50,075 bases of DNA, from IMG/VR virus record IMGVR_UViG_3300026881_000001, positions 1-50,075 of that record. The stretch is one strand, 5' to 3'. Below are positions 3,478 to 27,132 of this stretch, piece by piece. How positions within the stretch are numbered: the stretch's first letter is position 1; the number at the start of each line of letters is the position of its first letter. Source of the stretch: a virus. Taxonomy: Duplodnaviria; Caudoviricetes. The notes beneath the pieces are model-generated. The model was not told the origin of the DNA. It searched no databases and saw nothing but the letters and a program-made list of their open reading frames with translations. The position numbers and the translations under genes are program-made.

Positions 3478-3506
3478 AAAAAAGCCACTTGTTATGGTGG
3501 CTTTTT
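3478..3506. terminator. Intrinsic terminator after scaffold gene (potentially bidirectional)
   Basis: aaaaaagccac-ttgttatg-gtggcttttt. Confidence 0.75.
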
Positions 3507-3526
3507 ATCAGTATGCTTAATGTTTA

Positions 3527-4342: not shown

Positions 4343-4390
4343 ATAGTCAGTTTTAATTCTTTGTGAGTAAATAAGATTAAAAGAAGCTGA

Positions 4391-4810: not shown

Positions 4811-4846
4811 AATTGTAAATGTTTATATTGGTTAGTAAATAATTGA

Positions 4847-7311: not shown

Positions 7312-7322
7312 AGTGTTATAGT

Positions 7323-8807: not shown

Positions 8808-9403
8808 TATTCGTCTTCAGGCTCATCCTCATCACCGTAATAACTTACTTTGATCTCGTCTTTCTTCTGTTTGTTATCAAGCTCAAAAATGCCCAAATGT
8901 TTACCTAAGCTTTCAAGCGCCTTCACTTTATCGTGCAGTTTTAATTCAATGCCATTACGGCCATGCTTGATAGACGCAATGGCAGGGATCTTCTCAGGAT
9001 CAACATCGTCAGTTTTGAATATATCAACGTGTTTAATTGATCGCGTTACCTGTTTACGTTCATCAAGTATGTCGTCTATATCATCAATATCGTCTATATC
9101 ATCTTCCTGTGCGGCTAACGGATCTTCGTAAGTAAGTTCTTCGACTTTCAGGAAGTCAGTAATACGAGAAAAGCCGATAGTAGCTAACTCGTAGATAACC
9201 ATATCGGCTGTTATTTCAACACGCTTTGATCTTTTCTTGATTAGTTCTTTTATCCGCTGCTGTACTTCAGGATCATCCATCAACCTGGAAGAAATTTCGT
9301 TAGCGCTTCTCTCGGAAAAGCCGGCACGTATAGCCGCCTTTCTTTGGGAAAGATCGACTATGTATTCTTCGCAGAAACGTGCTCGCTGATTAGAAAGGGG
9401 CAT
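8807..9403 (-). CDS. terS: Terminase small subunit
   Basis: RFCEEYIVDLSQRKAAIRAGFS HTH, and KLHDKVKALESLGKHLGIF. Confidence 0.93.
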   Translation of the reverse strand: MPLSNQRARFCEEYIVDLSQRKAAIRAGFSERSANEISSRLMDDPEVQQRIKELIKKRSKRVEITADMVIYELATIGFSRITDFLKVEELTYEDPLAAQEDDIDDIDDIDDILDERKQVTRSIKHVDIFKTDDVDPEKIPAIASIKHGRNGIELKLHDKVKALESLGKHLGIFELDNKQKKDEIKVSYYGDEDEPEDE

Positions 9404-11771: not shown

Positions 11772-14214
11772 CTTTTTTGGTATTTATAAGTGTCGATTTA
11801 TGGTTACCAGAAAGACGCACATACGCCTTTTGTGGCCCATAAATTTTGAATCTTAGTTTACCCGTACTTCCTTCACTCCAATCCTCTAACGTCTGCATTA
11901 TGCTATGCAAATCCTTCGTATTATGCGTAGTCATATCCTTTTGCATGCCCCCGAACAATTCACACCATATTTCAGCAATACAAACGCGATCACGCACTAT
12001 CGTACCTTCCGGTTGCAGCTCATCACCCCGCAGGAATTCCCGGCGTTTAAATACATCATAATCATCCCAGTCAACAGGTAATTTGGTATCCAGGTACTTT
12101 TGAATAATACCTGCACGTTCATCAACTTCACTATGATCTCTTTGTACCTGCTTTGCTTCTTCTTCTACCTCAGCACTTAAAAACAATGGTTCTCCGGCCT
12201 TATATCGCACTATTGCTTCTGCCCATAGCTGGTTAATCACTTCATTGGTTAACTCCGTGAAAATGTTCTTTATGGGCTTTATTTCGTGTATATCTACCGG
12301 CCAAAAGCGGCGGTTACCAGAAGGATCACGTAAGAAATTGAGGTTATTGGATGTACCGAAGAATGCGCACTGCCGGGGGAAATTCTCTACCCTGCGACCA
12401 AAGGCTACGCGGTACCGGTCTTCACGCTTAGACATAAAGTGTTTGATGGTTTCAATATCAGCTTTCTTTAAACCGGCTAATTCCGCTACCTCTACCAACC
12501 ATACACCTTGTATTTGTTCAAAAGCTTCCTTGCCCTGTATGGTGCCAAGACTATCACTATACCACTCTTTGCCCATCTTATCAATGAGGTAACTTTTACC
12601 TTTTCCTTGCGGACCTACCGTAACAAGCACATGATCGAACTTAATACCCGGCTGAAAAATGCGAGCTACCGCAGCGGTAAAAGCTTTTCGCGTTACAGCA
12701 TGCGTGTACCGGCAATCTTTCGCGCCCAGGTAATCCACTAATAAACGGTCTAACCTATCGCGGCCATCCCATTTAAGTGATTGCAGGTAATCTTTCACCG
12801 GGTGAAAACTGTTATTGCTTACAGTAATATCCAGTGCATCTTTAACTTTTTGTATTCCGGTGATGTTATAGGTAGCTTCCAGGTAATGCCGTAAACTGGC
12901 ATCGTCAGTATCGACCAGGTATTTTGTTACCGGTGTTATCTTGCGCCATGGCAGGTTACGCAAAGCAACTTCACGTTTTTCAAAAGCATTAAGGGCAAAA
13001 CAGCCTTTTAGGTTTGGGTCATTAGCAAGGATAGTAACGATATTGTTAATGGTAGCATGATAATGTCCTTTGCGGTCAACATCCATTTCACCAAGCCAAT
13101 CGTCGTTTCCTTCTTCTGCTTCGTCAAAATCCACGTTATCGAAATCACCTTTTGCGTCCTGTAGACGCTCAGTGCCTAATTGCTTACGCACTTTCACATC
13201 CTTGGTTGCAAACTCTGTCATTGCCAGATACGACGGCAGTTTGTTACCTGGTGTACCTTCCTTAGTGTCTTCATCCTTCAATCCGTATTTGTGTAGGCGC
13301 ACCAGGTCGAAGGAGTTACATAGCTTTCCACTGATAGGATCTGTGCCATGGTGGCTAAAGGCGTATTTATCTTCGTACAGCACCAAGCCGCCCGAGGTGC
13401 TGCCTTCTTTATAAGTAAACCGGCCTTCAACGTCGCAGCTTTCATACACATCATCAAGGAATAATTCTATTACATCGGTAATACTGTACGTACGGCACCA
13501 TGCGCCGACAATACCCGGCTTTTCGGTTGGGTCTCCTTGCTTCTTGGCAGCTTGCCCAATTACATTTTGTTCACGGGAACTAACCGGCCATTCGCTGGTA
13601 TCCTTCCAGTCGTGGTAAGTTGCAAGTATCTCGTCTGCACTTAACCAGTCGCCATCCTGGTAGTCAAACATAAAAGCGCCATCTTTTGAAGTAGACGGCC
13701 AATACATTAACCTCGAAGGCTGGAAGGTCGTGTGATCGAAATAATCAATACCCAGTATGCCGGCAATGCGCCGGGAAATAGCCATGTACTCATCAGGGAA
13801 CACCTGGCGATCAAGGGGCAGGATGAGCCGCAAACGGGGTGATTCAGGGCTATGTTTATGTGTTGAGTAGATAGCAGCAGCGTTACCATATAACAGGGTG
13901 AAATCGTCCCAAATGTCCTGGGTAGCGAAATCAATGTCCAGTGTAACGAGCTGGCGGTGCATCACAGACCCCGATTTACGCCGGCCACCTGTCAGGTATC
14001 CACCTACAAAGCCGCCTATATCCTTTATTTCATCCTGCCGGGATTTTTTTGCCGCCATATACTCAGCGTGCGTTTCAGCGGTGTAATGTGTTACACTGAG
14101 CTTTTGTACCAGCGTGGACCAGAGCATTTCCCTGTTTTTCCAGTTCTTTGTTTGTCTATCCCGGCCAAGGGCTATATCGAATGTTCCGTCATTTATTATA
14201 TTGATCTCAGGCAT
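11731..14214 (-). CDS. Primase/helicase with VirE (virulence-associated E) domain
   Basis: N-terminal prim-pol motifs (LDID, YSTHKH..PRLRL); FHPVKDYL..LKWDG; Walker A GPQGKGKS; DPSGNRRFWP. Confidence 0.93.
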   Translation of the reverse strand: MPEINIINDGTFDIALGRDRQTKNWKNREMLWSTLVQKLSVTHYTAETHAEYMAAKKSRQDEIKDIGGFVGGYLTGGRRKSGSVMHRQLVTLDIDFATQDIWDDFTLLYGNAAAIYSTHKHSPESPRLRLILPLDRQVFPDEYMAISRRIAGILGIDYFDHTTFQPSRLMYWPSTSKDGAFMFDYQDGDWLSADEILATYHDWKDTSEWPVSSREQNVIGQAAKKQGDPTEKPGIVGAWCRTYSITDVIELFLDDVYESCDVEGRFTYKEGSTSGGLVLYEDKYAFSHHGTDPISGKLCNSFDLVRLHKYGLKDEDTKEGTPGNKLPSYLAMTEFATKDVKVRKQLGTERLQDAKGDFDNVDFDEAEEGNDDWLGEMDVDRKGHYHATINNIVTILANDPNLKGCFALNAFEKREVALRNLPWRKITPVTKYLVDTDDASLRHYLEATYNITGIQKVKDALDITVSNNSFHPVKDYLQSLKWDGRDRLDRLLVDYLGAKDCRYTHAVTRKAFTAAVARIFQPGIKFDHVLVTVGPQGKGKSYLIDKMGKEWYSDSLGTIQGKEAFEQIQGVWLVEVAELAGLKKADIETIKHFMSKREDRYRVAFGRRVENFPRQCAFFGTSNNLNFLRDPSGNRRFWPVDIHEIKPIKNIFTELTNEVINQLWAEAIVRYKAGEPLFLSAEVEEEAKQVQRDHSEVDERAGIIQKYLDTKLPVDWDDYDVFKRREFLRGDELQPEGTIVRDRVCIAEIWCELFGGMQKDMTTHNTKDLHSIMQTLEDWSEGSTGKLRFKIYGPQKAYVRLSGNHKSTLINTKKVFHKEKIGGTNGS

Positions 14215-14269
14215 TTTATTATCTACAGTTTACAAGTAGGGATAAGGTTTAAAACAGGAAGCGGATAAC

Positions 14270-14560
14270 TTAATTACCCGGCAATCCGCTACTTACAATA
14301 CGGTAGGGCGAGTGATTGCTATACACAGCTTTCGGCCTTTCAAAGCTCACAAGCGAGGGCGCTTCTTGCTTCTTAGGGGTTTTAGAAGGCCGTACGTTCT
14401 TAACCGCATATCGTTTGCGGGCGGCTTCGTAGATCCTGTTAACCACATCCGTAGTAGTATCAAGTTCTAAGGCGGTCTTTCTAAGTGTCCAGCCGTTATC
14501 ATTGATCTTTTCCCAAACTAAGCGTAGGGTAGCTTCATCATATATTGCGGGCATAATCAA
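14270..14560 (-). CDS. Small basic HTH-like protein coupled to the RT stop codon
   Basis: 96 aa (TTG start; ATG two codons later), GWTLRKTALELDTTTDVVNRIY resembles an HTH. Confidence 0.6.
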   Translation of the reverse strand: MIMPAIYDEATLRLVWEKINDNGWTLRKTALELDTTTDVVNRIYEAARKRYAVKNVRPSKTPKKQEAPSLVSFERPKAVYSNHSPYRIVSSGLPGN

Positions 14561-15522
14561 GCAGCTTTTTGGTGAATTAATTTCTTTACGAGGTGTTTAC
14601 TGTTACAGTGTTTCGCCCACCCCATATAAGCGGCAACTGTCAATTGATTAGCCCCTTGGGCTATCTTACGGGCAAAATTTTTCTTGATCGACTTACGTAG
14701 TAATATGTACCTATGGTAGAACTTATAACCGAGGAAGTCAATACCGCGGGCAGCTACAGGAAACACCTGATAATTGCCTTTAACAGTCAGGTTTAGCTCT
14801 TCGTGTAAATAGCGGGTGATCTCTGCTAAAAGGTTATGCAGGTATTCTTTATTATCGCTGAGGATAACAATATCGTCCGCATATCGGAAGTAGTATTTAA
14901 CTCCTTTCTGTTCTTTGATCCAGTGATCGAAGTAGGTGAGATAAAAATTTGCGAGGTATTGGCTTAGGTAACTACCTATCGGTAAACCAGGCGCACTATC
15001 AATTATGTTGTTCAGTAGAGAAAGTACACGCCAATCTTTGATTTTACGGCGCAACAGGGCTTTTAGGATATAATGATCTACGCTGGGGTAGAATTTCTTT
15101 ATATCCAGTTTCAGGCAATATTGCGTTTCCTGTTCATTACGCAATGCCTTTTTTACTGCATTAGCAGCAGGGTGTATGCCTTTGCCTTTAATACAACTGT
15201 ATGTGTCGGCTGTAAAGGTCTTTGCAATAACAGGCTCTAATACGTGAGTAGCAAGAAGATAATGTACTATGCGATCAGGGTAAAAAGGGAGTGAGTAAAT
15301 GTCTCTTTCCTTTGGGTCCTGTATTTGGAATACGAAATATTGAGAGGTTTTAAAGCGCCTCGTTATCAATAGTTGTTGAAGGATTTTAATATTTTCTTCT
15401 TTATTTGCGAGAAATCTTTGTACCCCTTTTTGATCATATTTTCCACGACAGGCTTTACCGGCAGCGATAGTTATATTTTCTATGCTGCACATTTCATTAT
15501 ACAAATTATCTTCTCTTCTCAT
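14557..15522 (-). CDS. DGR reverse transcriptase
   Basis: 321 aa; DPKER, PDRIVH, LKLDIKKFYPSV, GLPIGSYLSQ (DGR-type SQ motif), RYADD, GIDFLGY; no maturase or endonuclease domain; TR immediately upstream. Confidence 0.96.
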   Translation of the reverse strand: MRREDNLYNEMCSIENITIAAGKACRGKYDQKGVQRFLANKEENIKILQQLLITRRFKTSQYFVFQIQDPKERDIYSLPFYPDRIVHYLLATHVLEPVIAKTFTADTYSCIKGKGIHPAANAVKKALRNEQETQYCLKLDIKKFYPSVDHYILKALLRRKIKDWRVLSLLNNIIDSAPGLPIGSYLSQYLANFYLTYFDHWIKEQKGVKYYFRYADDIVILSDNKEYLHNLLAEITRYLHEELNLTVKGNYQVFPVAARGIDFLGYKFYHRYILLRKSIKKNFARKIAQGANQLTVAAYMGWAKHCNSKHLVKKLIHQKAA

Positions 15523-15740
15523 AGCCTTTGCTTTGTAAAACCCATCTTCGCCCTTAAAACAGGCTACCAGTGGGTTTCATTGTATCAGTGATTTTTTACC
15601 AAGAGGTAAGGTCTGTATCGTAGTATAATTGTTTTAGCCAGGTGGGAACTAACGTTGGCGTTCGTGTTCCAGTTGTTGACGTTGTTGAAGACAAGACGAG
15701 AGCCAGAAACGCAAACATTAGTCCGACGATACACAACCTG
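15523..15740 (-). ncRNA. Putative DGR template RNA (TR plus structured flanks)
   Basis: Non-coding gap between target 1 and RT; TR enclosed by an inverted repeat (TGTATCGT 15614-15621 / ACGATACA 15726-15733); further hairpins at 15596-15609 and 15538-15577. Confidence 0.75.
15640..15705 (-). repeat. DGR template repeat (TR)
   Basis: GGC TCT CGT CTT GTC TTC AAC AAC GTC AAC AAC TGG AAC ACG AAC GCC AAC GTT AGT TCC CAC CT; 7 AAC codons, 17 adenines. Confidence 0.96.
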
Positions 15741-15749
15741 TTAACTATT

Positions 15750-16208
15750 TTAATATGTAAAAAACTCGTTCATTAAGTCAATAAATTGTCTACCAAAGTA
15801 TTCCGCTGTTTTTGCATCCGGGAAGCAAAGGCGGGAACTAACGCTGGCGCGCGTGAGCCAGAGGTTGACGTGGCTGAAGACAAGACGAGAGCCATTGTGC
15901 GTGTAGTATGGAACCCACTTGTATTGGTTAGTGTTTGAGAAATCCGGTACCCAATTGCCGATTAAAGCTTTGTTGATCACCAGCATCTTTTCAAAAGCGT
16001 TTCCACTTATAGAGCCTTTTGTGAACCTGGCTGCATTGGGGTCTTCACCAAGTTCGGCACAGGCATCTTCAAAGCTTTTAATTCTGTCAATTGGGCTAGT
16101 AGAAAAGGCGTTTTCGCCGAAGGTGCTTTTAAAAATCACCTTTAGTTCATTTGGAGCAGTTGGGTATAATTTCCTTGCTTCTGCCTCAGTGAGTTGTAAT
16201 GTTTTCAT
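15750..16208 (-). CDS. DGR target protein 1
   Basis: 152 aa; VR encodes GSRLVFSHVNLWLTRASVSSRL; paralog of targets 2 and 3 with an extra N-terminal segment of about 40 aa. Confidence 0.93.
   Translation of the reverse strand: MKTLQLTEAEARKLYPTAPNELKVIFKSTFGENAFSTSPIDRIKSFEDACAELGEDPNAARFTKGSISGNAFEKMLVINKALIGNWVPDFSNTNQYKWVPYYTHNGSRLVFSHVNLWLTRASVSSRLCFPDAKTAEYFGRQFIDLMNEFFTY
15829..15894 (-). repeat. DGR variable repeat VR1
   Basis: 66 bp, ungapped against TR, 10 mismatches, all at TR adenines. Confidence 0.96.
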
Positions 16209-16238
16209 CGCTATGTTTTTTTATGTTTGAAATATGGT

Positions 16239-18131
16239 TTATGCAACCTGTTGGATTGATGCGTCGTTACCTTCGTAAGCTTTACCCAAGTGCATTATCA
16301 ATTCACTTGGTACAGCATTACCTATCATTTTCTTATTTGCAGTCGAAGACTTTGAGAGCCTTGTTTTTTCTGGTATGGTCATTATGCGTAACATCTCTAC
16401 TTCTTTTAACATGCGCATGTTTATAGAGATAATACCATTTTCAGCCATGTATTTTTTGAGCTTTCTGTAATGTGCTGGATCATGGTCGAAAACCTCAATA
16501 GCCAATTCCCCCGTTTCTAAGGTTACCAGGTAATCAGGTGATTTATCCTGCCGGGCAATCAGCGTATTAGATGGGTTTGTTACAGCGTTCAAACCTTCGC
16601 TGAACCATTGGAAGTTGACCAGGTAATAATATTTTCTATTAGCTGTAATTATTCCTATGGTCTCGTGCAGTTCGGTAGACCTTTCCGAGCCATTGTTATA
16701 TGCAGTATCCATTAAAAACTTAGTTGTTACTAATGGATGTTTATCTTTTGTCATTACGGCGGGCGCAGGTTGAGTTAAACCGCTCCCATCCCCGCGCGAA
16801 TGGTATGTACTTAAGTGCTGTATAGTATGTAAGGCAATACGGTCTTTTGTACCTGAAGTATTAGCAGGTTCATCTACGGACTTCATATAGCCATTTCCAA
16901 AATAATGATCGATTAAATGCGCTTTTGCTACATTGAGGCCACCGAAACACGTAAGAGTAGGTGAAGGATTTTCTACAGAAGCCCCACTGGAAACATCAGT
17001 ATTATTTTTAGCGCTATTCGTTTTAACTATCCAGGTATCAATATTGCCTTTTAATACATGCTTATTTGTACCATTGATTAAACGATCGATTGTTTTGGAA
17101 GAAGTGATACGAGGAACCAATTTACCTTTTTGCGTTTTAAAGGATAAAACACTTTCTCCTTCATCTTCTAAATCCAAGCAAGGTTTTACAGGCATCCATG
17201 GTAATAAACCATTGCGCCCTTTTTTATCGTGTGTTTGCATTGGCCAAGTAGCAGAATTACCTTTACGGTTAAATTGCATGATTAATCTTACCCGGTGTTG
17301 TGGTATTCCGTAATCTGCACAATTCATTAACCTTTCATCAGTATTATAGCCCAAAGAGCAAATAAGCTTTTTCCACCTCTTGAAATCTTCCCCTTTGCCT
17401 TCTTCCTCAGGTATCATCCAAGGCTCAATTGTTCCCTTCTTTTTATTGATGATAAGAGGACATTGAGGCGCAGAGCCATCAGCGATATAAGAAGCAAAAA
17501 ACAGATCTTCGTTATCTAAATCGGGATTAAATTGTAAGGTTTTCTTTTTCTTGCCGGCGTTGATAATAACCTTGGGTATCATTGGCCCCCATAACCTGAA
17601 CTCTTTCACATTTTCTATCCAGATCGTATCAGGGTTTAATTCAATCACATATCTGTCTGCATGATCGGCAAGAGTACGGCTATCAGCATCACGGGATTTA
17701 CCACCCTTAGCGTTACTGAAATTGGTACATTCTAAGCTTAACCACAAATGCACCTTTATATCAGCATTGCGTTTTTTGATCTCGGCAATCATGTACCTGA
17801 TAATAGTAAGATCCGCTGTTCTGAAATCTTCTAAAAGATGCAGGCAATTAGGATGATTAGTTTTGTGTGTTTTGATAGCTAATTGCCAATGATTAATACA
17901 AGCTATTACCTTCCAGTTCTTTAGCATGCTAAAACCGGCAGTTACACCCCCCATACCGCAGAAGCCATCAACTACAATATGTTTTATAGAAAAGTGAGAA
18001 GCTTCGCGGATAATAGTTTCTATAAAGCTTCTATTATATTCCTTTTCGCCGCAAAAAATACGGTCTTCAGTAAAATGTAAGTTTGATTGCATCGTATTTC
18101 TTTTAATCCTTTCTGTAGTAATAGGTTTCAT
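16239..18131 (-). CDS. DNA (cytosine-5) methyltransferase, phage type
   Basis: Motif I DGFCGMGG, motif IV SLECTNFS, motif VI IENV, motif VIII QHRVR, motif X IGNAVP; true start may be a downstream Met. Confidence 0.9.
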   Translation of the reverse strand: MKPITTERIKRNTMQSNLHFTEDRIFCGEKEYNRSFIETIIREASHFSIKHIVVDGFCGMGGVTAGFSMLKNWKVIACINHWQLAIKTHKTNHPNCLHLLEDFRTADLTIIRYMIAEIKKRNADIKVHLWLSLECTNFSNAKGGKSRDADSRTLADHADRYVIELNPDTIWIENVKEFRLWGPMIPKVIINAGKKKKTLQFNPDLDNEDLFFASYIADGSAPQCPLIINKKKGTIEPWMIPEEEGKGEDFKRWKKLICSLGYNTDERLMNCADYGIPQHRVRLIMQFNRKGNSATWPMQTHDKKGRNGLLPWMPVKPCLDLEDEGESVLSFKTQKGKLVPRITSSKTIDRLINGTNKHVLKGNIDTWIVKTNSAKNNTDVSSGASVENPSPTLTCFGGLNVAKAHLIDHYFGNGYMKSVDEPANTSGTKDRIALHTIQHLSTYHSRGDGSGLTQPAPAVMTKDKHPLVTTKFLMDTAYNNGSERSTELHETIGIITANRKYYYLVNFQWFSEGLNAVTNPSNTLIARQDKSPDYLVTLETGELAIEVFDHDPAHYRKLKKYMAENGIISINMRMLKEVEMLRIMTIPEKTRLSKSSTANKKMIGNAVPSELIMHLGKAYEGNDASIQQVA

Positions 18132-20052
18132 AGCTCTCAGCAGTCAGGGGTAATCCTCTCGCCCATGATATTTGTTGCCCCATGATGGCATTTACTTCTT
18201 GCACACTCCCTTTTCGTTCGGGCATTTCCAGAACAACTTCATCATGTACGTGCATCACAATTTCATAACCGGCATTATCCAGTCTCAGCATTACATCTGC
18301 CAGACAATCCCTTGCTACAGCCTGTACAATGTTCTCCACCAGTTTACCCCCGTAGGTATCCTGGCTGCCCCATTGTTTACTGGTCTGGTCCATTCCTTCA
18401 TAAGTCAGGGATTCACTGTTAAATCTGTTTGGTTTTAGCTTAGGCCGCAGGTAGGAAAGTTTTCTACCGCTTGGCAATTCGATAAATAGAATATCATTTG
18501 AGGTATAGAATTTTATCCCGTTGCCTACTGTCTCAACAGTGCCATTAGTAAAGGCTTCTATTGCCGCCTCTTCTACTTTTTTCCAGTAATTAACGATTGC
18601 CCGGTTAGCATTGCGCCACATCTTTACCAACCTTGGTAGTTCTTCTTCTAATAGCCCCATTTTTAATGCTCCCATTCTCACTAAGGCATCAGGACCGCCC
18701 TGGTAGCCCAAAGCCAATTCGGATACTTTACCTTTTTGGCGCAGGTCCGATCCTTTGGTTACTTTCTCAATTGGTATTTTGAACATCTGAGCTGCGGAGG
18801 CTTCATAGATTTTGCCATGCGTGTTAAACACATCAAGCCTCCATTTCTCACCAGCTAACCAGGCAATTACACGGGCTTCTATCGCTGAGAAATCCGCAAC
18901 GATGAAGCGATGCCCCGGAGATGCTACAAAAGCAGTTCTAATGAGTTGTGAGAGGGTATCAGGAACATTACTGAATAACATTTCCAGCAGCTCCAAATCG
19001 TTTTCTTTAACCAGTTGACGGGCTAAGTCTAAATCCTTTAACTGGTTCTTGGGTAGATTCTGAACCTGAACCAAACGCCCTGCCCATCTACCGGTACGGT
19101 TAGCGCCGTAATATTGTAATAAGCCCCTAACCCTTTTATCTCCACACAATACGTTCATCATTGCCTCATACTTCTTTACAGAAGTTTTAGACATTTCCTG
19201 TCTTATTTGAAGCATGCGCTTTACTTGCTGGCAATCTATTTCACTGAGAAGTACAGGTACTGATTCTTTAGTAAGGCTTTTAACGGCCTCTCCTGTTTGT
19301 TCTTCTATCCATTCCTTTAACTGCGCGGCGCTGTTTGGGTTAGTAATGCCTGTTAGGGCTATGGCTTCCGTGTAGAGCCTTTCCCGGTAGTTAATATCAA
19401 AATCAATGGCGTTCTGTACAAATACAGGATCGATTAAAACACCTTTATCGTTAATTCTTTGATCCAACCGCCAAAGCTTTTTTTCATTAGCCGGTATTTC
19501 AAAAAATGCTATTTTCTTATTAATTGCTTTCTCCACTGCAACGTCCTGCCGGCAGTATTCTTTAAACTGGTTCCACTTTTCAATATCGTGATGTGGTAAG
19601 TTGCGTGTTCTCTCGCCATTTGCCTTGGTTGGTTTGCAGGGGAGAGAAAAAAACTTTATCAACGCTTTACCGGCAGTATCCTTTTTTTGTTCAAGTCTTA
19701 GAGCTTTTGCCGCTGCATCAAGATTCAGAGGCAGACCAAGCATTGAGCCTTTTACCTGGGTGCATTCCCATTCGGTTGATGGTAGCTTACGCAATAAATA
19801 CTTTTGTAAACACGTCCTTTCAAAATTTGCGTTGTAAGCGGTTTTAAGAACGTTCATATTAAAAAGCGCATCCATTATCCTGTGGGGGATTTCTTCGCCT
19901 TGTGCCAGGTCTATAACTTCGATAGGCTCATTATTGAATTGATAGGCGAATAGTAATACATCAAAGTCTTTAGCTTCCACGTATTTGTATACCCCTGATT
20001 TTATAAGATCAGTCGAGCTGTATGTTTCAATATCTATCGCAAGGGTATTCAT
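18103..20052 (-). CDS. DNA polymerase family A with 3'-5' exonuclease
   Basis: AIDIETYS, AYNANFER, RTGRWAG..QVQNLP, DFSAIEAR, RQKGKVSELALGYQGG, HVHDE. Confidence 0.96.
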   Translation of the reverse strand: MNTLAIDIETYSSTDLIKSGVYKYVEAKDFDVLLFAYQFNNEPIEVIDLAQGEEIPHRIMDALFNMNVLKTAYNANFERTCLQKYLLRKLPSTEWECTQVKGSMLGLPLNLDAAAKALRLEQKKDTAGKALIKFFSLPCKPTKANGERTRNLPHHDIEKWNQFKEYCRQDVAVEKAINKKIAFFEIPANEKKLWRLDQRINDKGVLIDPVFVQNAIDFDINYRERLYTEAIALTGITNPNSAAQLKEWIEEQTGEAVKSLTKESVPVLLSEIDCQQVKRMLQIRQEMSKTSVKKYEAMMNVLCGDKRVRGLLQYYGANRTGRWAGRLVQVQNLPKNQLKDLDLARQLVKENDLELLEMLFSNVPDTLSQLIRTAFVASPGHRFIVADFSAIEARVIAWLAGEKWRLDVFNTHGKIYEASAAQMFKIPIEKVTKGSDLRQKGKVSELALGYQGGPDALVRMGALKMGLLEEELPRLVKMWRNANRAIVNYWKKVEEAAIEAFTNGTVETVGNGIKFYTSNDILFIELPSGRKLSYLRPKLKPNRFNSESLTYEGMDQTSKQWGSQDTYGGKLVENIVQAVARDCLADVMLRLDNAGYEIVMHVHDEVVLEMPERKGSVQEVNAIMGQQISWARGLPLTAESYETYYYRKD

Positions 20053-20240
20053 TAGCGTTTCTTGGTTTTAGCTTCTTCCTGCTGTAAAACATCAAGGTTA
20101 TCATTGATGTATTGTTTAACGCCCGGATGCGTTACACCTTCTTTGTATAAAAACATCAAGTAGGCTGCCGGAACATTTGCCATGGTTTTGCCTTTGTACT
20201 TACCAAAGGGCATAAGCGTGGTATCAGTATAAGTAACCAT
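20052..20240 (-). CDS. DUF3820-like small protein
   Basis: MPFGKYKGKTMANVPAAYL motif. Confidence 0.75.
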   Translation of the reverse strand: MVTYTDTTLMPFGKYKGKTMANVPAAYLMFLYKEGVTHPGVKQYINDNLDVLQQEEAKTKKR

Positions 20241-20266
20241 AAAAGAACATTTTTGAGGTTTAAAAG

Positions 20267-20292
20267 AAAGCGCCTTTGAACCAAGGCGCTTT
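20267..20292 (-). terminator. Hairpin/terminator after SSB gene
   Basis: aaagcgcctt-tgaacc-aaggcgcttt. Confidence 0.65.
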
Positions 20293-20316
20293 ACTGTTTA
20301 GCGGGGTATTGAGTGA

Positions 20317-20901
20317 TTAACCTAATAAATCGTCTTCGTCAGGACTGGCGAAATCCTCGTCTTCTACAACTATCTCTGCAAAATCAGATTCAGCAGTAGC
20401 ACGACCACCTAACGGCTCACCGTCTTTAACTTTCATAATGTGGTTAAGTCCACAGGCCACACCTTTACTACCATTGGTATTGAAAGGATAGAAAGTAACA
20501 CTGGCATATCCATAACAGCCGCTGTATACTTCGTCCTGGTCCATGATCTTATTAAGCTTTTTATCAACAACACCAGGTTGTGTTTTACAATTAGCGTTAA
20601 TAAAAAAACTGTCTGCATAGGCTTCGTCGTCGGGCCTGTCTGCGTCTCCATCACGTAATGGGTTTTTCCAGTTAGCGGGAATCTTACCGCCGAACTTGCT
20701 TGTTTTACCTGCTTCTTTTGCAGCTTCAATAGCGGCCTTAATTTTTTTAATCAAAGCCTTATCGCTCTTAGGGATAATTAAAGAAGCAGAATACTTTTTT
20801 TCCTGCCCTTCTTCTACGGCAGCCGGTTCCCATATATGTAGGTAGCTCAACCGAACAAGAGAGGTTACAACTTTCGTTGCTACGTTTGCTTCTGCGCTCA
20901 T
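20317..20901 (-). CDS. DUF2815 single-stranded DNA-binding protein
   Basis: VRLSYLHIWEP, KYSASLIIPK, PLRDGD, EVYSGCY, GEPLGG, acidic C-terminal tail. Confidence 0.92.
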   Translation of the reverse strand: MSAEANVATKVVTSLVRLSYLHIWEPAAVEEGQEKKYSASLIIPKSDKALIKKIKAAIEAAKEAGKTSKFGGKIPANWKNPLRDGDADRPDDEAYADSFFINANCKTQPGVVDKKLNKIMDQDEVYSGCYGYASVTFYPFNTNGSKGVACGLNHIMKVKDGEPLGGRATAESDFAEIVVEDEDFASPDEDDLLG

Positions 20902-20936
20902 TTGTTTTAGTGTTAAATAGTGAAAAAAGAGGTTAT

Positions 20937-22109
20937 TTATTCAGTCACGACAACGTCCTTAAAGTCCGCCTGTGCGGCTTCTTCTGTATTGAACTCAGGG
21001 CGTTTATCGCTATTAGGAACAAGGGTTGGTTTACCTGGTGGCTTGATAGTCAAATCAGCTAAAAGTTTGTTGAACTCTGCTTTGCCGATCTCTTTTTCCA
21101 TGGCAGTGATGTCAAGCAGCTTTTTAGAGTAAATCACTTCTTCATCAAAGCCGCTGGAAGTAAGCTTATTGGCAACAGAGGTTTCATCAAGATACTTTCT
21201 GTTGCTACGCCCTTCTACTAACTTGTAACCTGGCCATTTCTTATTATTGTCGATAGCCTCAGCTAAAGCGTAGTCGGTTACAGCGGTTAACCAGTTGGTG
21301 AAGTCTTTGGCACGATCAAGTATATCAGCTATTTCTTGGTCGTTTAATAAAACGGCTTGCTTGAAGTCAAACTGTGCAAGCACTAATTGATGATCTGCAT
21401 TAGCCTTACAAACAGCTTTTGCTTTACAGAACTGGCAGTGTTTGCCGGCTACAAATTCACCTTCACCTTTGAAAGCCATTTCAGCCCTTGGTTTCAGTTC
21501 GGTTTCTGCCCATTCTCTCAATTCGATCACGGGTATTTCCCACGTAGATATTGTATCCAAACGAGGTTGGTAAATGGTCATACGAACCGTATCAATATCA
21601 TACATGAAATCGTATTCCCGCAGAGCGCCAAGAGCGTAAAGCATCATTTGCTTATTGTTATCTGCAAACACCGGAACGCCTTTACCGTACTTCAAATCGA
21701 TAATATCAAGAACACTGTTTGCAATAATGATCACATCACCTGTACCAAATCCCTCCGGTACATAATCGGTTAGGTTCAGCTTTTGTTCCAGGAAGATGAT
21801 TGCATCACGTGTATGCGCTTGTGCTTCTGCAAGTCTCTCCATTACGAAGGTTGCATACTCTTCTGCATGGTCTAACATGGCGTTATCGTACAAATCATTC
21901 TTGGCGATTACATCAAACGCTCTTTTAAAAGCGACTTTAGCAACGTTGCCCAGTTTCTCTTTTATGATAAGTTCACTTAAAGCATGCGCCAATGTTCCTT
22001 CGGCAGCAGCTTGCCCGGACCTATCAGGAAATTGCTGTTCCAATCTCGCAGAAGGTGTACAGCTTAACCAACGCGAAGCCCCGGAGGGAGATAGTACGGC
22101 GTGCGGCAT
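20937..22109 (-). CDS. DUF2800 Cas4-like PD-(D/E)XK nuclease
   Basis: HAVLSPSGASRWLSC, EGTLAH, GFGTGD, IIDLKYGKG, QMMLYALGA, HCQFCKAKAVC. Confidence 0.92.
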   Translation of the reverse strand: MPHAVLSPSGASRWLSCTPSARLEQQFPDRSGQAAAEGTLAHALSELIIKEKLGNVAKVAFKRAFDVIAKNDLYDNAMLDHAEEYATFVMERLAEAQAHTRDAIIFLEQKLNLTDYVPEGFGTGDVIIIANSVLDIIDLKYGKGVPVFADNNKQMMLYALGALREYDFMYDIDTVRMTIYQPRLDTISTWEIPVIELREWAETELKPRAEMAFKGEGEFVAGKHCQFCKAKAVCKANADHQLVLAQFDFKQAVLLNDQEIADILDRAKDFTNWLTAVTDYALAEAIDNNKKWPGYKLVEGRSNRKYLDETSVANKLTSSGFDEEVIYSKKLLDITAMEKEIGKAEFNKLLADLTIKPPGKPTLVPNSDKRPEFNTEEAAQADFKDVVVTE

Positions 22110-22468
22110 TAGAGTTCGTTTATTTTTTCAACAAAAGCAGTGAAATTGACAGGATCTAATTCAGAGAGTTTGCCAGCGCCATACTCAGTTAATAACGCTT
22201 TTACTTCATCTCTTTTACCGGCATCTGTCTGCTTTTTAACAGCAGCTCTCACCTCTTCGATTGTGGTTTCTTCATCTTCTTCTTTTGGAGTATTTTGTGC
22301 ATGTGCGGCAATGGCTTTGTTACTAGCAGGTTTAGTTACCGGCTTGATTTCTTTAACAGGCGCTGCCTGTGTACCTGGTACAAGTGCCGAGCCACCAGCC
22401 AGACCGCGCAGAGTTTCAAAAAGTTCTTCCGCATTGGAAGCGACAATAGATAGATTGATGTTAGTCAT
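22109..22468 (-). CDS. Conserved hypothetical protein of the DUF2800-DUF2815-PolA module
   Basis: 119 aa; TIEEVRA...VKALLTEYGAGKLSELDP C-terminal domain; TAATG coupling to the next gene. Confidence 0.75.
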   Translation of the reverse strand: MTNINLSIVASNAEELFETLRGLAGGSALVPGTQAAPVKEIKPVTKPASNKAIAAHAQNTPKEEDEETTIEEVRAAVKKQTDAGKRDEVKALLTEYGAGKLSELDPVNFTAFVEKINEL

Positions 22469-22514
22469 GTGTTTTATTTAATAATTGAATAATGACAGTT
22501 TAAAAAAATGGGAG

Positions 22515-22670
22515 TTATTCACCACCTATAGCGTAGTGCTCTGGAAAGTTTACTTCGTTGGCATCTGATTCGTTAACCTCAAACTCTATACTCCCGTCGG
22601 TTGATTCTTCACTGGCTACCCCTTTTTCTTTTGGGCCACCACACCGTTTTAGTTCGTCTGGTTTTTGCAT
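22515..22670 (-). CDS. Small acidic ORF (51 aa) absent from the ORF track
   Basis: MQKPDELKRCGGPKEKGVASEESTDGSIEFEVNESDANEVNFPEHYAIGGE; A-rich leader AAACAAATAAAA-ATG. Confidence 0.45.
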   Translation of the reverse strand: MQKPDELKRCGGPKEKGVASEESTDGSIEFEVNESDANEVNFPEHYAIGGE

Positions 22671-22834
22671 TTTTATTTGTTTTAGGTGATGTTAATTTTA
22701 ATGGGTATTCAAGGGCATTTATAGAAAAGTATTTTAAAAGAACCCAGTTAAGAATAACCGGGTTCAACCCTTAAATTCTGAGAGAGTTATCCCAAAATCC
22801 CGTGTTAAGGCTAACCGGCTTCGCCGCGATAGCA

Positions 22835-23173
22835 TCAACTATTTAAAAAGTCGTTATGTAGGTCAATGAATTGAGTACCAAAGTATTTTGCGTCCTCTTC
22901 ATTATGGAAGCAAAGGCGGGAACTAACGCTGGCGAACGCGCACCAGAGGTTGACGTAGGAGAAGACAAGACGAGAGCCATTACTGTAGAATAAAGCAAAG
23001 TATTTTCGCTGCTTATTATTCCAATCAGCTTTCCAATTGCCATTAATTGCTGCAGCAATAACTTTTAGTTTACGGTGAGCGATTTCATCAACAGGACCAG
23101 TAGTAAATCTTTCATCGGTCGGATTATCGCCGGTGATGGCACAAGCCTGTTCAAAAGTTTCAGGACGATTCAT
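22835..23173 (-). CDS. DGR target protein 2 (remote)
   Basis: 112 aa; VR encodes GSRLVFSYVNLWCAFASVSSRL. Confidence 0.93.
   Translation of the reverse strand: MNRPETFEQACAITGDNPTDERFTTGPVDEIAHRKLKVIAAAINGNWKADWNNKQRKYFALFYSNGSRLVFSYVNLWCAFASVSSRLCFHNEEDAKYFGTQFIDLHNDFLNS
22914..22979 (-). repeat. DGR variable repeat VR2
   Basis: 66 bp, ungapped against TR, 12 mismatches, all at TR adenines. Confidence 0.96.
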
Positions 23174-23205
23174 TTTATATGTATTGAGATAGTGATGTAA
23201 AAAGG

Positions 23206-23553
23206 TTAGAAAAGAAAGTCGTGATAGAGCTTTTCAAAAGTTGTAGCTGCGTATTCAGCGCCTTCTTTAGTCTCGAAGCAAAGGCGGGAACTAACGAAGG
23301 CGTTCGCGTACCAGAAGAAGACGTAGTTGAAGACAAGACGCTTTTTAGTAGAGTTGTATTCTGTGTATACAATCCACTTGCGTTGATTACCATTACTCCA
23401 ATCAGCTTGCCAGGTGCCGTTAATAGCTTTGGTGATCACCTTTAGCTTTTCATAAGCAATAGTATCCTTTGCCCCTTTCGTGAATTTATCGGCTTTGAGG
23501 TCTTCGCCGGTGGCCTTACAAGCCTGTGCAAATGTTTTAGGACGATTGTTCAT
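23206..23553 (-). CDS. DGR target protein 3 (remote)
   Basis: 115 aa from ATG 23553 (MNNRPKTF aligns with MNRPETF of target 2); VR encodes RLVFNYVFFWYANAFVSSRL. Confidence 0.92.
   Translation of the reverse strand: MNNRPKTFAQACKATGEDLKADKFTKGAKDTIAYEKLKVITKAINGTWQADWSNGNQRKWIVYTEYNSTKKRLVFNYVFFWYANAFVSSRLCFETKEGAEYAATTFEKLYHDFLF
23282..23340 (-). repeat. DGR variable repeat VR3
   Basis: 59 bp, ungapped against TR, 10 mismatches, all at TR adenines. Confidence 0.95.
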
Positions 23554-23583
23554 TGTTATATGTGTTGTATGAATAAACAAGTG

Positions 23584-23688
23584 TTAGAGGTCCAGTGCTT
23601 CGTGATCATCTTTAAGCACTTTAATAGCTTTGGAGAAAGAACGTAGTACAAACACTATTAGCGCTGTTATTGCTAAGGTTGAGGTCAT
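23584..23688 (-). CDS. 34-aa hydrophobic micro-ORF
   Basis: MTSTLAITALIVFVLRSFSKAIKVLKDDHEALDL; ATGA overlap with upstream micro-ORF. Confidence 0.45.
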   Translation of the reverse strand: MTSTLAITALIVFVLRSFSKAIKVLKDDHEALDL

Positions 23689-23792
23689 GGCTTGAAGTTT
23701 TTATAATGGCAATAGAAATAGCCTAACCCAAAAGCCAGTATAGCAACAGCTATAAGCGAAAAGATCGTTGTAGAAACAAATGTTGTTGTCAT
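23685..23792 (-). CDS. 35-aa single-TM micro-ORF
   Basis: MTTTFVSTTIFSLIAVAILAFGLGYFYCHYKNFKP; re-called start inside the 87-aa track ORF. Confidence 0.5.
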   Translation of the reverse strand: MTTTFVSTTIFSLIAVAILAFGLGYFYCHYKNFKP

Positions 23793-23802
23793 ATCAGTTA
23801 GT

Positions 23803-23964
23803 TTATATTTTTTCCGTTTTAACCGCCAAGTATGTGCCGTTACCAATTTTAGGGCGATAGTAATCCGCAAATCGTGAGGCATCTGAATGATCATCTGTTG
23901 CGTAGACCATTGTTTTAATACACCTGTTTTCACCATAATATTCAACATGCACCCGGTATTTCAT
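23803..23964 (-). CDS. 53-aa early ORF absent from the ORF track
   Basis: MKYRVHVEYYGENRCIKTMVYATDD...TEKI; fills the gap exactly and has the same leader AAACTAACTGAT-ATG as the next ORF. Confidence 0.5.
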   Translation of the reverse strand: MKYRVHVEYYGENRCIKTMVYATDDHSDASRFADYYRPKIGNGTYLAVKTEKI

Positions 23965-23965
23965 A

Positions 23966-24151
23966 TCAGTTAGTTTGTTGTAACAGGTTTAGGTTCGGAT
24001 AGTCTTCTATCTTCTCACTGCTAATAAGGTTACATATTCTACTGTTCCACCATTTGCTATGCTTGCTTCGTTTTAAAAGCAGTGTGTTTACCGCCAACAC
24101 GCTTATCATCCAAACAGCGGAAACAGTATATATGCCTATGATTATTTGCAT
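23966..24151 (-). CDS. Small membrane protein
   Basis: 61 aa, N-terminal hydrophobic helix, TAATG coupling. Confidence 0.55.
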   Translation of the reverse strand: MQIIIGIYTVSAVWMISVLAVNTLLLKRSKHSKWWNSRICNLISSEKIEDYPNLNLLQQTN

Positions 24152-24405
24152 TACTTCTTTATTATGAATTGTTGCGGTAAGGATTCAAGTAAGTACACCC
24201 AGTTGCTTTCAGCATTACGTTTGTGCTTTATAAGATTCTGCCGGCGTACACGTCTCATGTCTTCTGCTTTCCAGCCTGTTAGATCCGTGATGTATGTAGC
24301 CGGTACCCAGTGCTCATCTGGATTTTGTTTCTCCACCAGATTGCGAAGTATTTTTACGTCACGTCTAAGTGCAGTAACTTCACGTTGTAATGCTTCGATA
24401 CTCAT
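24151..24405 (-). CDS. Putative DNA-binding (Xis/winged-HTH-like) protein
   Basis: 84 aa, coiled coil followed by WVPATYITDLTGW...RRVRRQ; early operon position. Confidence 0.55.
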   Translation of the reverse strand: MSIEALQREVTALRRDVKILRNLVEKQNPDEHWVPATYITDLTGWKAEDMRRVRRQNLIKHKRNAESNWVYLLESLPQQFIIKK

Positions 24406-24620
24406 TCCAGTCCTATTAACTTGTTCTTGTTAAAGAAGTAATTGCCTCTTAGTGATTTTGCTACTGCGCCGTCCGGGAAGTTGTTTTTGTAAACCCGGTT
24501 AAGCATTGATTTCTTTTGAATGCCCCGGCCATTTTTTAAAAGCTTTCTTGCTTCTTCTAATGGTATCCAGTCTTCCGAATTAGGTAGATGGATAAAACTT
24601 TTTAAGTTCGGTGTGCTCAT
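24402..24620 (-). CDS. Putative excisionase-like HTH protein
   Basis: 72 aa, WIPLEEARKLL...SMLNRVYK...GNYFFNK pattern. Confidence 0.55.
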   Translation of the reverse strand: MSTPNLKSFIHLPNSEDWIPLEEARKLLKNGRGIQKKSMLNRVYKNNFPDGAVAKSLRGNYFFNKNKLIGLE

Positions 24621-24691
24621 TTGTGTGGTTTTGTGTTGGATTATGTAAGGAATATTTCATAGGGATTGTTTAAAGCGTATAGGGGGTTATT

Positions 24692-24901
24692 TTAGCACTC
24701 GACAAGTAGTTCAGAAGGTTCTTTTTGCAAATAGGTAGAGACTGTGTTAAGCACATCGAACTCTATTAACCTGGTAGAATCCCTTTTGAACATCTGAGGT
24801 AGAGAGATCGGCCTTATTTTGAGTGAATTTGCTACTAAGCCAAAAAGCGTTGGGTTATTCATTATCGCTTCTTTTACCTCGTCTTTCAGTTTGCTTGCCA
24901 T
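24692..24901 (-). CDS. Cro-like repressor
   Basis: 69 aa helical protein, first gene divergent from cI. Confidence 0.65.
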   Translation of the reverse strand: MASKLKDEVKEAIMNNPTLFGLVANSLKIRPISLPQMFKRDSTRLIEFDVLNTVSTYLQKEPSELLVEC

Positions 24902-25025
24902 GAGTTTGTATATTTGATTACCTTAATTGACAAGTCAAAGATAAGGTAAGATTTCTCACATTTTAAAATAAAAGTGAGATTTATAACAAATTTAGAAATC
25001 TTACAATAAAACAAACTTTTATTAA
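24902..25025. promoter_or_regulatory. Lysis/lysogeny switch: two promoters and 14-bp operators
   Basis: TATATTTG (+, 24909-24916) and TATCTTTG (-, 24936-24943); operators GTAAGATTTCTCAC 24946, GTGAGATTTATAAC 24974, TTTAGAAATCTTAC 24991; fourth copy GTGAGATTTCTAAC at 25204. Confidence 0.75.
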
Positions 25026-25751
25026 ATGAATTCTAATAAAGACATATCAAACGTGCTTGAAAGAATAAAAAAAGAGTATGGATTGACGCAGATTGAGATT
25101 GCAGAAAGCATAAATTACAGTAGAGAATATCTTTCACAAGCCAAGAAAAACAATTCAGAAGCACTTTTAAACTTACTAATTGATAAATTTCCACCTAAAA
25201 AAAGTGAGATTTCTAACAATGACAACCCTGATTTGATTTATAAAATGGAAGAGCCACAGGAATCGTATACGGTTACTCGCAGAAATAAAAAGAATAAAGA
25301 TGATTTTTATAAAGCCCCTCTTGTATCAATTAAGGCCCAAGCCGGCTATGTAAGATCTTATGATCAAACTGATTATGTTGATACCTTAGAGAAATATGCT
25401 CTTCCACCAGGTATTACCTACCATGGCGCTGTTTGGCGATATTTTGAGATAGAAGGTAATAGCATGCACCCAACATTTGCTAACGGGGATATTGTGTTAG
25501 CAAGTCAAGTACCACAGGTAGATTGGGAAGATATTAGAAACTTTTATATTTACGTACTTGTGACCGATACTAGAATCCTTATAAAAAGGATTTTTGCGAA
25601 GTCTCATAATGAATGGGTATTGATCAGTGATAACGAAGAGGAATATGGACAAGTGCTTTTTGATATCAGTGAGTTAAAACAACTTTGGATATTTAGAAGG
25701 CATTTAAAAAGAAGTGCGCCACCACCAAAACAATTTAAAATTACTGTATGA
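25026..25751 (+). CDS. CI-like repressor (HTH plus S24 autopeptidase)
   Basis: LTQIEIAESINYSREYLS HTH; FEIEGNSMHP catalytic Ser; LIKR catalytic Lys; LISDN. Confidence 0.93.
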   Translation: MNSNKDISNVLERIKKEYGLTQIEIAESINYSREYLSQAKKNNSEALLNLLIDKFPPKKSEISNNDNPDLIYKMEEPQESYTVTRRNKKNKDDFYKAPLVSIKAQAGYVRSYDQTDYVDTLEKYALPPGITYHGAVWRYFEIEGNSMHPTFANGDIVLASQVPQVDWEDIRNFYIYVLVTDTRILIKRIFAKSHNEWVLISDNEEEYGQVLFDISELKQLWIFRRHLKRSAPPPKQFKITV

Positions 25752-26430: not shown

Positions 26431-27132
26431 ATGCCTTTTGTTTTTCTAACTGGGATATTGATAGTTATTGCCTGTTACTTTCTTGCAATGGCTGGTGAGG
26501 ACCATAAAAGAAAGCAATTGCAAAAAGCTGCGTTTGAGCAGATAAAAAAACTTTATTATAAATCGTTACTTACAGAACCATCATTTGCAAAGGTTGCTAC
26601 TTATGGGCAGGAATATTACAAACTGGCTTATCCAAAGAAATCAGCAAAAGAGATATTTGCAATAATTCAAAACGATATGCTTAAAAATGTACGTTTTAAC
26701 GAGTTTACGGCTATCCTGACTGTTTTTTATACAGCGGCCTATAATCCGTACAAAGATGCTTTAAATGATAGCAGATCACTAAAAATGATTGAAATATTGA
26801 AATCATGGGGTATTCTTGTAGACAATACTAAACCAGATTTCAACGTTGCTAAAAGAACTGTGGCGATCCTTAAAGGGCAAATAGATATTTCTTATGTTTT
26901 TAGTAAAATAGAAGCAGGTAAGCATGATGCAATAGCTCTTCTCACTTCTGATATTATTTTTGCTTCAAATGATCTTGAAGATTACCAGTTTAATATTTTA
27001 AAAGGGCTTGCTGGTTTAAATGACAATATAAAAAAGACAATAGCACAATCAACTGAATACTACCAAAAAAGGTTATCTGCTATAAACATACCCTGGACTT
27101 ACACAAATGGCGAACACGTGGCCGTTTCTTAG
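26431..27132 (+). CDS. Membrane-anchored hypothetical protein in the cI operon
   Basis: 233 aa, N-terminal TM helix, AT-rich. Confidence 0.65.
   Translation: MPFVFLTGILIVIACYFLAMAGEDHKRKQLQKAAFEQIKKLYYKSLLTEPSFAKVATYGQEYYKLAYPKKSAKEIFAIIQNDMLKNVRFNEFTAILTVFYTAAYNPYKDALNDSRSLKMIEILKSWGILVDNTKPDFNVAKRTVAILKGQIDISYVFSKIEAGKHDAIALLTSDIIFASNDLEDYQFNILKGLAGLNDNIKKTIAQSTEYYQKRLSAINIPWTYTNGEHVAVS

Follow-up and report, generated by a model that had tools for sequence, protein, structure and literature searches.

The locus described here raises the question of what a phage diversity-generating retroelement (DGR) may serve when the proteins that it rewrites are not tail fibres. The window, i.e. the whole stretch of 50,075 nt that was analysed (IMG/VR virus record IMGVR_UViG_3300026881_000001, a member of Caudoviricetes), contains a DGR with a single template repeat (TR) and three variable repeats (VRs), each lying in the gene of a small protein (T1, T2 and T3 hereafter). 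A sequence-only reading of this DNA had suggested that these proteins are cytoplasmic binders made early in infection. Our analysis supports, with a probability of roughly 0.6, the explanation that an active DGR devoid of the accessory protein Avd rewrites three paralogous small phage proteins acting as intracellular variable binders. The parts of this explanation are not equally strong: the identity and the activity of the DGR are almost beyond doubt in our judgement, while the involvement of T1–T3 in intracellular conflict, deduced from their genomic context and from the lack of export signals, is offered tentatively, its chances being slightly below even.

The reverse transcriptase (RT) is encoded on the minus strand at 14557–15522 by an intact open reading frame (ORF) of 321 aa. 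DGR-type RTs are defined by an RVT_1 domain, the [I/L]GxxxSQ motif and YxDD, and the translation shows IGSYLSQ and YADD. The protein matches Pfam RVT_1 (E value 6.9e-21) and phrog_1423 'Reverse transcriptase' (1.7e-115) and falls short of the curated thresholds set for group II intron, retron and Drt models, in agreement with the DGR-type enzyme that had been recognised earlier by its LSQ and YADD motifs. Upstream of the RT gene and on the same strand, the 66-nt TR occupies positions 15640–15705. It opens with GGC TCT CGT CTT GTC TTC, continues with AAC AAC GTC AAC AAC TGG and then with AAC ACG AAC GCC AAC, and closes with GTT AGT TCC CAC CTG; its 17 adenines are thus distributed between seven AAC codons and the single adenines of ACG, AGT and CAC. 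VR1 (15829–15894, minus strand; residues 105–127 of T1) and VR2 (22914–22979, minus strand; residues 65–87 of T2) are 66 nt long and carry 10 and 12 mismatches to the TR, respectively. VR3, located in T3, is 59 nt long (23282–23340, minus strand) with 10 mismatches, the 7 nt upstream of it being diverged from the TR. Every one of these mismatches lies at a TR adenine (10/10, 12/12 and 10/10; 32/32 pooled) and there are zero indels, so all the coordinates and counts of the one-TR, three-target element given in the sequence-only reading proved to be correct. The diversity of 15^7 variants per target calculated there is a fair lower bound, because the TR has three single adenines in addition to its seven AAC codons.

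The ungapped scan for copies of the TR, performed on both strands of the whole 50,075-base record, yielded only three further copies, and the search for additional VRs proposed earlier therefore ended with the same three. The 3′ half of the TR with its adenines replaced by N matched the TR and the three VRs only, with 0 mismatches in each, and in none of 100 shuffles did this A-masked half match anywhere. Neither the scan nor the A-masked pattern revealed a TR match in the tail genes, as had been noticed from the sequence before; the lack of a tail-gene VR holds for the whole genome because the record is 100% complete according to CheckV. The VRs are in-frame and internal, each being followed by 24–25 constant residues, and consequently the sequence at their 3′ boundary also codes for SSRLCF. 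All three VRs have CCCGCCT at the 3′ end, the TR having CCCACCT; this fixed G against the A of the TR could be a recipient-versus-donor mark. When the DNA around each VR 3′ end was folded (81 nt; z of −0.9, −1.95 and −0.2), the three regions had no hairpin in common, and no hairpin common with the VR 3′ ends was found in the fold of the TR 3′ end. Avd (PF05635) was not found anywhere in the record, even at E ≤ 1. The absence of Avd does not exclude membership among DGRs, because the DGRs lacking accessory genes ('Architecture A') account for 75 out of 372 in the survey of Wu 2017 (PMC5758913).

The activity of the element was assessed by comparison between samples. Three soil-metagenome runs contain the stretch (X1–X3); two of them are identical to the record and are possibly its source, and X3 belongs to a different sample and a different study. 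The comparisons use assembled contigs, in which the heterogeneity within a sample is invisible. An X3 contig spanning 14557–16196 has zero differences from the window over 14557–15843, covering the RT and the TR, and its VR1 allele differs at 12 positions (15844–15875), all 12 of them among the 17 TR-adenine positions of the 66. The adenine-specific variation expected by the sequence-only reading was thus found at the level of contigs. At VR3 of X3, position 23297, also a TR-adenine position, differs from the window. Among related cassettes, the pairs that are nearly identical overall (98.6–99.6%) differ in their VRs at TR-adenine positions in 9 cases out of 9 (L040/L054), 13 out of 14 (L056/L064) and 19 out of 20 (L008/L010). 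Because VR1 differs at 12 TR-adenine positions while the RT and the TR are identical between samples, the DGR of the window is active in nature, and its clade likewise. The alternative, that the element has decayed to a relic and that its VRs differ from the TR by substitutions fixed long ago, would find some ground in the missing Avd homologue, in the lack of a clear hairpin after the VRs and in VR3, which is shorter and has an insertion in X3. We consider it very improbable in view of the intact RT ORF with its catalytic motifs, the contrast between the identical TR and RT and the altered VR1, and the existence of Avd-less DGRs as a recognised class.

Upstream of VR1 the T1 gene of X3 carries 27 further differences (15966–16155), 22 of which are at third codon positions, suggestive of ordinary divergence under purifying selection, probably via recombination with a related strain. 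The identity of the RT and TR beside the diverged N-terminal half of T1 suggests a recombination boundary inside this gene. The exact TR had 0 matches in the viral and metagenome contig collections, from which the window's own record may have been excluded, and the region 14200–24000 had no megablast match in the phage collection.

The three targets are encoded on the minus strand. T1 (15750–16208; 152 aa) is a long form that has an N-terminal helical extension of about 40 residues, and T2 (22835–23173; 112 aa) and T3 (23206–23553; 115 aa from the ATG at 23553, or 124 aa with the TTG at 23580 as start) represent the bare core, T3 being alignable across the entire core of the family. All three match phrog_11581 (7.9e-20, 2.7e-17 and 1.4e-14 for T1, T2 and T3, respectively), in line with their earlier description as small paralogs. 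This is a phage family of unknown function that is matched by all 37 members of our family alignment; Pfam and NCBIfam gave no match for T1–T3. The word-indexed search yielded 66 homologues of 112–204 aa, all unnamed, and the search with the family profile among 1.84 billion representatives retrieved 5299 clusters (50% identity) at E ≤ 0.001, or 3879 at E ≤ 1e-10, with two-domain proteins of about 300 aa among the members found. The blocks conserved in the family, KTFEDAC, LK(I/V)IxxALNEGWxPDW and GSRLCFxxxELAxYAGKQFIDL, flank a variable stretch of about 20 residues, which is the position of the VR. The absence of export signals that had been pointed out from the sequence was borne out: T1–T3 have no hydrophobic segment of transmembrane level (maximum KD19 0.68–1.17) and no N-terminus resembling a signal peptide. 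The isoelectric points (pI) of T1, T2 and T3 are 7.7, 6.3 and 9.3, the family median being 5.7. Family members are also present in the cultured Bacteroides phages Versailles, LoVEphage, BI-TP1 and PV4-TP1, as well as in BT-TP2.

The AlphaFold2 model of T1 (37 sequences) has a pLDDT of 82.9, falling below 50 in the VR, and that of T2 (140 sequences) reaches a pLDDT of 90.5 and a pTM of 0.84. The T2 model comprises helices at residues 7–14 and 28–44, a beta-hairpin (57–64/69–77), a loop (78–84) and C-terminal helices (92–111). The residues of T2 having TR-adenine codons (72, 73, 75, 76, 78, 79, 80, 82, 84 and 86) are placed by this model mostly at the end of the strand 69–77 or in the following loop. 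In the Foldseek search, which the sequence-only reading had suggested, no match was found in the PDB at E ≤ 0.001 for either the T1 or the T2 model. In the wide VIA-align search, run on 48,161 representative chains, the best Z scores were 5.0 (T1) and 3.4 (T2), which are below the level typical for unrelated models, and none of the top 50 rows for T1 and T2 was titled C-type lectin. The family profile found nothing below E 0.1 among the PDB sequences, Foldseek against BFVD returned only uncharacterised phage proteins for T1, and ESM Atlas only unnamed viral clusters. Judging from the models, the short form cannot be filed under the C-type lectin fold, although it may be a strongly reduced derivative of that fold, and the lack of a match among the solved structures does not make the predicted fold a new one. 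The complex prediction for T1 and T2 gave a median score of 0.29 against a mark of 0.32 and was informative neither way.

The window is not a solitary case. In the viral set (IMG/VR) at least 457 of the 570 pattern matches encode a relative, and the best 80 of them were analysed; in the set of genomes (contigs of one genome per species) 145 of the 162 matches were confirmed, 80 of which were analysed. The relatives were examined within flanks of 8–10 kb. In 58 of the 80 viral loci the family gene is directly followed, within a few hundred bases, by an RT that is 52–65% identical to that of the window, and 56 of the 80 had TR–VR pairs with adenine-biased mismatches. In the genome set an RT was found in 53 and TR–VR pairs in 58 of the 80 loci, almost all of them from Bacteroidota (Chitinophagaceae, Sphingobacteriales, Bacteroidales and Flavobacteriales), with a few metagenome-assembled genomes (MAGs) of Ignavibacteria, Chlorobi and Clostridia; the best match was an Agriterribacter MAG. 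Taken together, TR–VR pairs were found in 114 of the 160 loci and all the 230 VRs (230/230) were located inside family ORFs, so the linkage of the RT to this kind of target, which the earlier reading wanted to see surveyed in relatives, is recurrent, with a similar early or replication placement. Two VRs per locus are the rule (85 of the 114 loci), while 14 loci have one, 14 have three and one has four. The median repeat length is 79 nt (range 46–93), the 66 nt of the window being toward the short end. The usual cassette order is long-form target, short-form target, TR and RT, without any ORF between the last target and the RT. The window thus belongs to a widespread cassette clade in which phrog_11581 is the only target found within the flanks. 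This clade may be placed among the Avd-less Architecture A/Lineage 3 DGRs of Wu 2017.

A 105-aa protein (phrog_19665, without Pfam match; e.g. L014:5122-5439, plus strand) is encoded directly after the RT in 52 of the 80 viral loci and is a candidate accessory factor of the Avd-less clade. In the window the place after the RT is taken by a basic ORF of 96 aa (14270–14560, minus strand; pI 9.8), which abuts the RT stop and whose belonging to the element is uncertain. It has no match in Pfam, PHROGs, PADLOC or NCBIfam and was absent from the related loci in the tblastn search; as a counterpart of the 105-aa gene it was rejected, the two sequences being unrelated. A DUF4494 gene (PF14902, 1.8e-57; phrog_19572; e.g. 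L007:2308-2751, plus strand) is situated a few genes from the cassette, on either side, in 47 of the 80 viral loci, and the window ORFs scanned against Pfam contain no DUF4494 match. The TR–RT block behaves as a presence/absence polymorphism among close relatives (e.g. L031, L032, L049, L050 and L052).

The position of the targets in the phage genome bears on their role. Structural, replication and early genes are all on the minus strand. The genes of the small and large terminase, portal and capsid protein are at 2240–9403 (minus strand) and the block of large tail proteins is at 32559–45439 (minus strand); an integrase is encoded at 27129–28277. A CI-like/S24 repressor (25026–25751, plus strand; phrog_4, 1.3e-14; phrog_6201, 2.6e-11) is divergent from the early operon with T3 and T2, which are located 1.3–2.1 kb downstream of the divergent region. 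From about 24900 downwards, small unannotated ORFs are followed by T3, T2, a phrog_408 protein, a DUF2800/PD-(D/E)XK exonuclease (20937–22109, minus strand), a gp2.5-like single-stranded DNA-binding protein (SSB; 20317–20901, minus strand), a family A DNA polymerase (18103–20052, minus strand), a C5 DNA methyltransferase (16239–18131, minus strand) and T1, and then by the TR, the RT, the 96-aa basic ORF and a primase/VapE helicase. T1 is thus situated between the methyltransferase and the TR–RT block, with T2 and T3 being remote from it by about 7 kb, and the sequence-only reading was right to assign the targets to the early/replication transcription unit. In lambdoid phages the stretch from the early promoter to the recombination genes usually houses host-takeover and anti-restriction genes.

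The phage, having an integrase and a CI-like repressor, is temperate; its genome is about 48 kb long and its host is probably a soil member of Bacteroidota. IMG/VR classifies the record as linear. Its ends (1–2234 and 47842–50075) are 91.4% identical over about 2.2 kb, and three ORFs (181, 383 and 137 aa) are found in both. This redundancy gives the record the look of a wrap-around, in which two strain variants of a circular or permuted genome of about 47.8 kb were joined by the assembly. In X2 and X3 the contigs of a diverged, co-occurring variant run straight from 16208 to 16239, without the 30 nt that separate the methyltransferase gene from T1, and several low-identity contigs over 16239–18131 represent a second strain of the methyltransferase gene. 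The sigma-70 scan of 14000–25100 detected 25 promoter-like sites versus 26.0 in shuffles, Bacteroidota promoters being outside its scope, and the terminator scan of the same region 7 sites versus 10.2 in shuffles.

The neighbourhoods of the relatives fall into two groups. The first one includes a MuB-like ATPase, a second ATPase, a GemA-like protein, DUF3164 and DUF4494, i.e. a Mu-like early region; the second one is a recombination module with RecT or Sak4 annealing proteins, YqaJ exonuclease, VRR-NUC, HNH and Ant. In one viral locus (L024) and four genome loci (L103, L120, L124 and L139) parts of the exonuclease–SSB–polymerase–primase module of the window are present, and in L103, L120 and L124 the targets are scattered among the replication genes, the remote VRs being 3–4 kb from the TR. 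Phage Versailles has its homologue between the genes of NinB and the replisome organiser. It is this early-operon position, together with the recurrent neighbourhood of methyltransferases and nucleases and the lack of linkage to the structural module, that leads us to the reading of T1–T3 as participants of an intracellular conflict.

A temperate phage could also employ such proteins in the lysogen, as prophage-encoded sensors or exclusion factors that recognise components of superinfecting phages. The integrase and the CI-like repressor are compatible with this possibility, and putative sensors of bacterial conflict systems are diversified by DGRs according to PMC10907252. The genes in question, however, belong to the lytic early operon that diverges from the repressor. 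The targets neither carry a fused effector domain nor have one conserved beside them, and PADLOC gave no match; we regard the sensor role as rather improbable.

A more serious challenge to the intracellular role arises from LoVEphage (MW660583), where the family is represented by QVQ57199, a long form of 194 aa that was deposited as hypothetical with 'No HHsearch hits' and found here as a tblastn match of the Versailles phrog_11581 member. Its neighbours are a C5 methyltransferase, Dam methyltransferases, an RtcB ligase and nucleases. The LoVEphage RT, the region of which is annotated as several short ORFs, adjoins the gene of a tail-collar fibre, and the single TR of this phage matches two VRs about 15 kb apart, one at the C-terminus of the fibre and the other in QVQ57199 (repeat matches L168:8384-8501, L168:8671-8788 and L166:7392-7504; length about 113–118 nt). 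The VR of the fibre has 14 mismatches to the TR, 13 of them at adenines, and that of QVQ57199 has 19, all at adenines (19/19). The variable module of the family is thus akin to that at the end of tail-collar fibres targeted by DGRs, the homology with a fibre VR being seen in long-form members, and the rest of the protein has no known relative.

These data keep alive the main rival of our explanation, a virion or adsorption accessory role, because the variable module is common to the tail fibre. The small proteins would then be associated with the virion, for example as a detachable adhesin or an adaptor docking on the tail or capsid, and the DGR would switch the host range as in BPP-1. A number of observations weigh against the intracellular role, and several of them favour this rival. 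One LoVEphage TR serves both the fibre and the family member, whose variable modules share 62% identity across 50 aligned columns; four of the 37 members of the family alignment match phrog_5302 'tail protein'; and the Versailles homologue, the variable region of which matches the C-terminal 43 positions of phrog_5302 (E value 1.2e-7), bears the label 'tail protein' in its deposited record. According to surveys (Roux 2021; PMC12636319), tail proteins are the typical targets of phage DGRs. More distant tail targets in the relatives could be missed within the flanks examined. The defence models of PADLOC give no match for T1–T3, and no RNA run containing the stretch is listed. Tandem family genes without an RT nearby occur (e.g. 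in the five loci of the TR–RT polymorphism mentioned above), which implies that the family has a function independent of diversification. Finally, a single base is inserted behind 23303 in VR3 of X3, and the listed differences include no deletion that would compensate for it; the C-terminus of T3 may be frameshifted and this copy dispensable, or else the insertion may be an assembly error.

On the other side, the similarity between the fibre and QVQ57199 ends at the variable module, the family alignment reaching only 13% probability over 27 columns in hhalign against the fibre. The family genes have an early, recombination or replication location in the window, in the annotated neighbour families of the viral loci and in the cultured phages examined, and none of them is in the tail block of the window. 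The proteins, moreover, are only 112–152 aa long and have no recognisable anchoring domain. On balance, a virion-associated or adsorption-related function seems to us unlikely, and the intracellular binder explanation is preferred.

According to this explanation, the RT would copy the transcript of the 66-nt TR, misincorporating at adenines, and the complementary DNA would replace the homologous stretch in the three paralogous genes. The seven AAC codons and the one ACG recoded in this way would fall on the second strand of the beta-hairpin and the loop after it, on a small scaffold of helices plus hairpin. T1–T3 would be soluble proteins that do not leave the infected cell and that bind, early on, with variable specificity, and the most probable arena would be a conflict of the phage with its host or with another phage, for example with diversifying host defence proteins. 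The extension of this idea to the whole clade, i.e. that it possesses an adaptive counter-defence or host-takeover arm consisting of hypervariable small intracellular binders, built on a miniature scaffold lacking any solved relative, that are re-targeted to diversifying proteins of the host or of rival phages, rather than serving receptor switching, is at present doubtful.

The sequence-only reading overstated the novelty of the system. The family occurs in cultured Bacteroides phages, the cassette type is common (114 of the 160 loci), and second, non-structural targets of DGRs have been described in Quimbyviridae (Benler 2021, PMC8008677) and seen again near counter-defence genes (Dahlman 2025, PMC12629997), in both cases with an interpretation linking them to counter-defence. 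Both targets of the Quimbyvirus DGR are said there to contain C-type lectin domains (Benler 2021). The two-target layout of LoVEphage appears to be the arrangement which Benler 2021 gave for Quimbyvirus. A non-structural, conflict-related target of a phage DGR is therefore already in print, and the window's family is that of LoVEphage. A description of the phrog_11581 family was not found in the literature searched, which also included PMC8144416, PMC8525569 and the bioRxiv preprint 10.1101/2024.11.15.621889, although such cassettes may be listed in Table S1 of Wu 2017 and among the target clusters of Roux 2021. In the literature searched there was likewise no large DGR clade with phrog_11581 as the only target found, and a shortened variable module like that of the window was not found in published work.

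The window can be considered as one instance of a common and overlooked cassette type, the target family of which had been glimpsed earlier as a 'second target'. Phage DGRs are explained almost wholly as tail-fibre diversifiers of the host range, including in the 2025 gut virome atlas, and here a large class of active DGR cassettes without a detected tail target rewrites small proteins among early and replication genes. If the intracellular action is true, targeted hypermutation would join the phage side of the arms race between defence and counter-defence, and nature would have provided, in the 112-aa scaffold, a compact platform on which variable binders can be built. The question of function is directly testable, since cultured Bacteroides phages (Versailles, LoVEphage, BI-TP1 and PV4-TP1) carry members of the family.

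Compared with the classical system of BPP-1 (Mtd, Avd, TR and Brt), the window is similar in the adenine-specific changes between TR and VR, in the template codons rich in AAC and in the order of target, TR and RT on one strand. It differs in having no Avd, in a target that is not a tail fibre, in the internal VR followed by 24–25 residues, in the absence of a C-type lectin match by sequence or fold search and of an evident hairpin after the VR, and in the number of targets, two of the three being 7 kb away. The Hankyphage DGR (Benler 2018, PMC6199706) also belongs to a temperate phage of Bacteroidota and has a target of no known function, but this target is a protein of about 2225 aa that ends in a C-type lectin, and an Avd-like ORF is part of the cassette; Hankyphage was rejected as a relative on account of the size of the target. 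The Architecture A and Lineage 3/3A DGRs of Wu 2017 share with the window a TR–RT core without an accessory gene and allow multiple and remote targets; Lineage 3 is Avd-less and its sub-lineage 3A is confined to Bacteroides and relatives. Two of the target classes of Wu 2017, 'CH1' (160–169 aa, acidic) and 'Ig1', are possible counterparts of the family. A further likeness is offered by the second, remote target known from LoVEphage and Quimbyviridae: in LoVEphage it is from the same family, is diversified by a DGR and lies away from the structural genes and by methyltransferases and nucleases, as T1 lies after the C5 methyltransferase in the window; the Quimbyvirus ORF of Benler is linked to this family through LoVEphage and through Dahlman 2025, which cites Benler 2021 for that phage. 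In LoVEphage the family member is the secondary target, a 194-aa long form beside an RT-adjacent tail-collar fibre, and the repeat is about 113–118 nt, whereas the window, with no tail target, devotes its shortened repeat of 66 nt to three members of the family.

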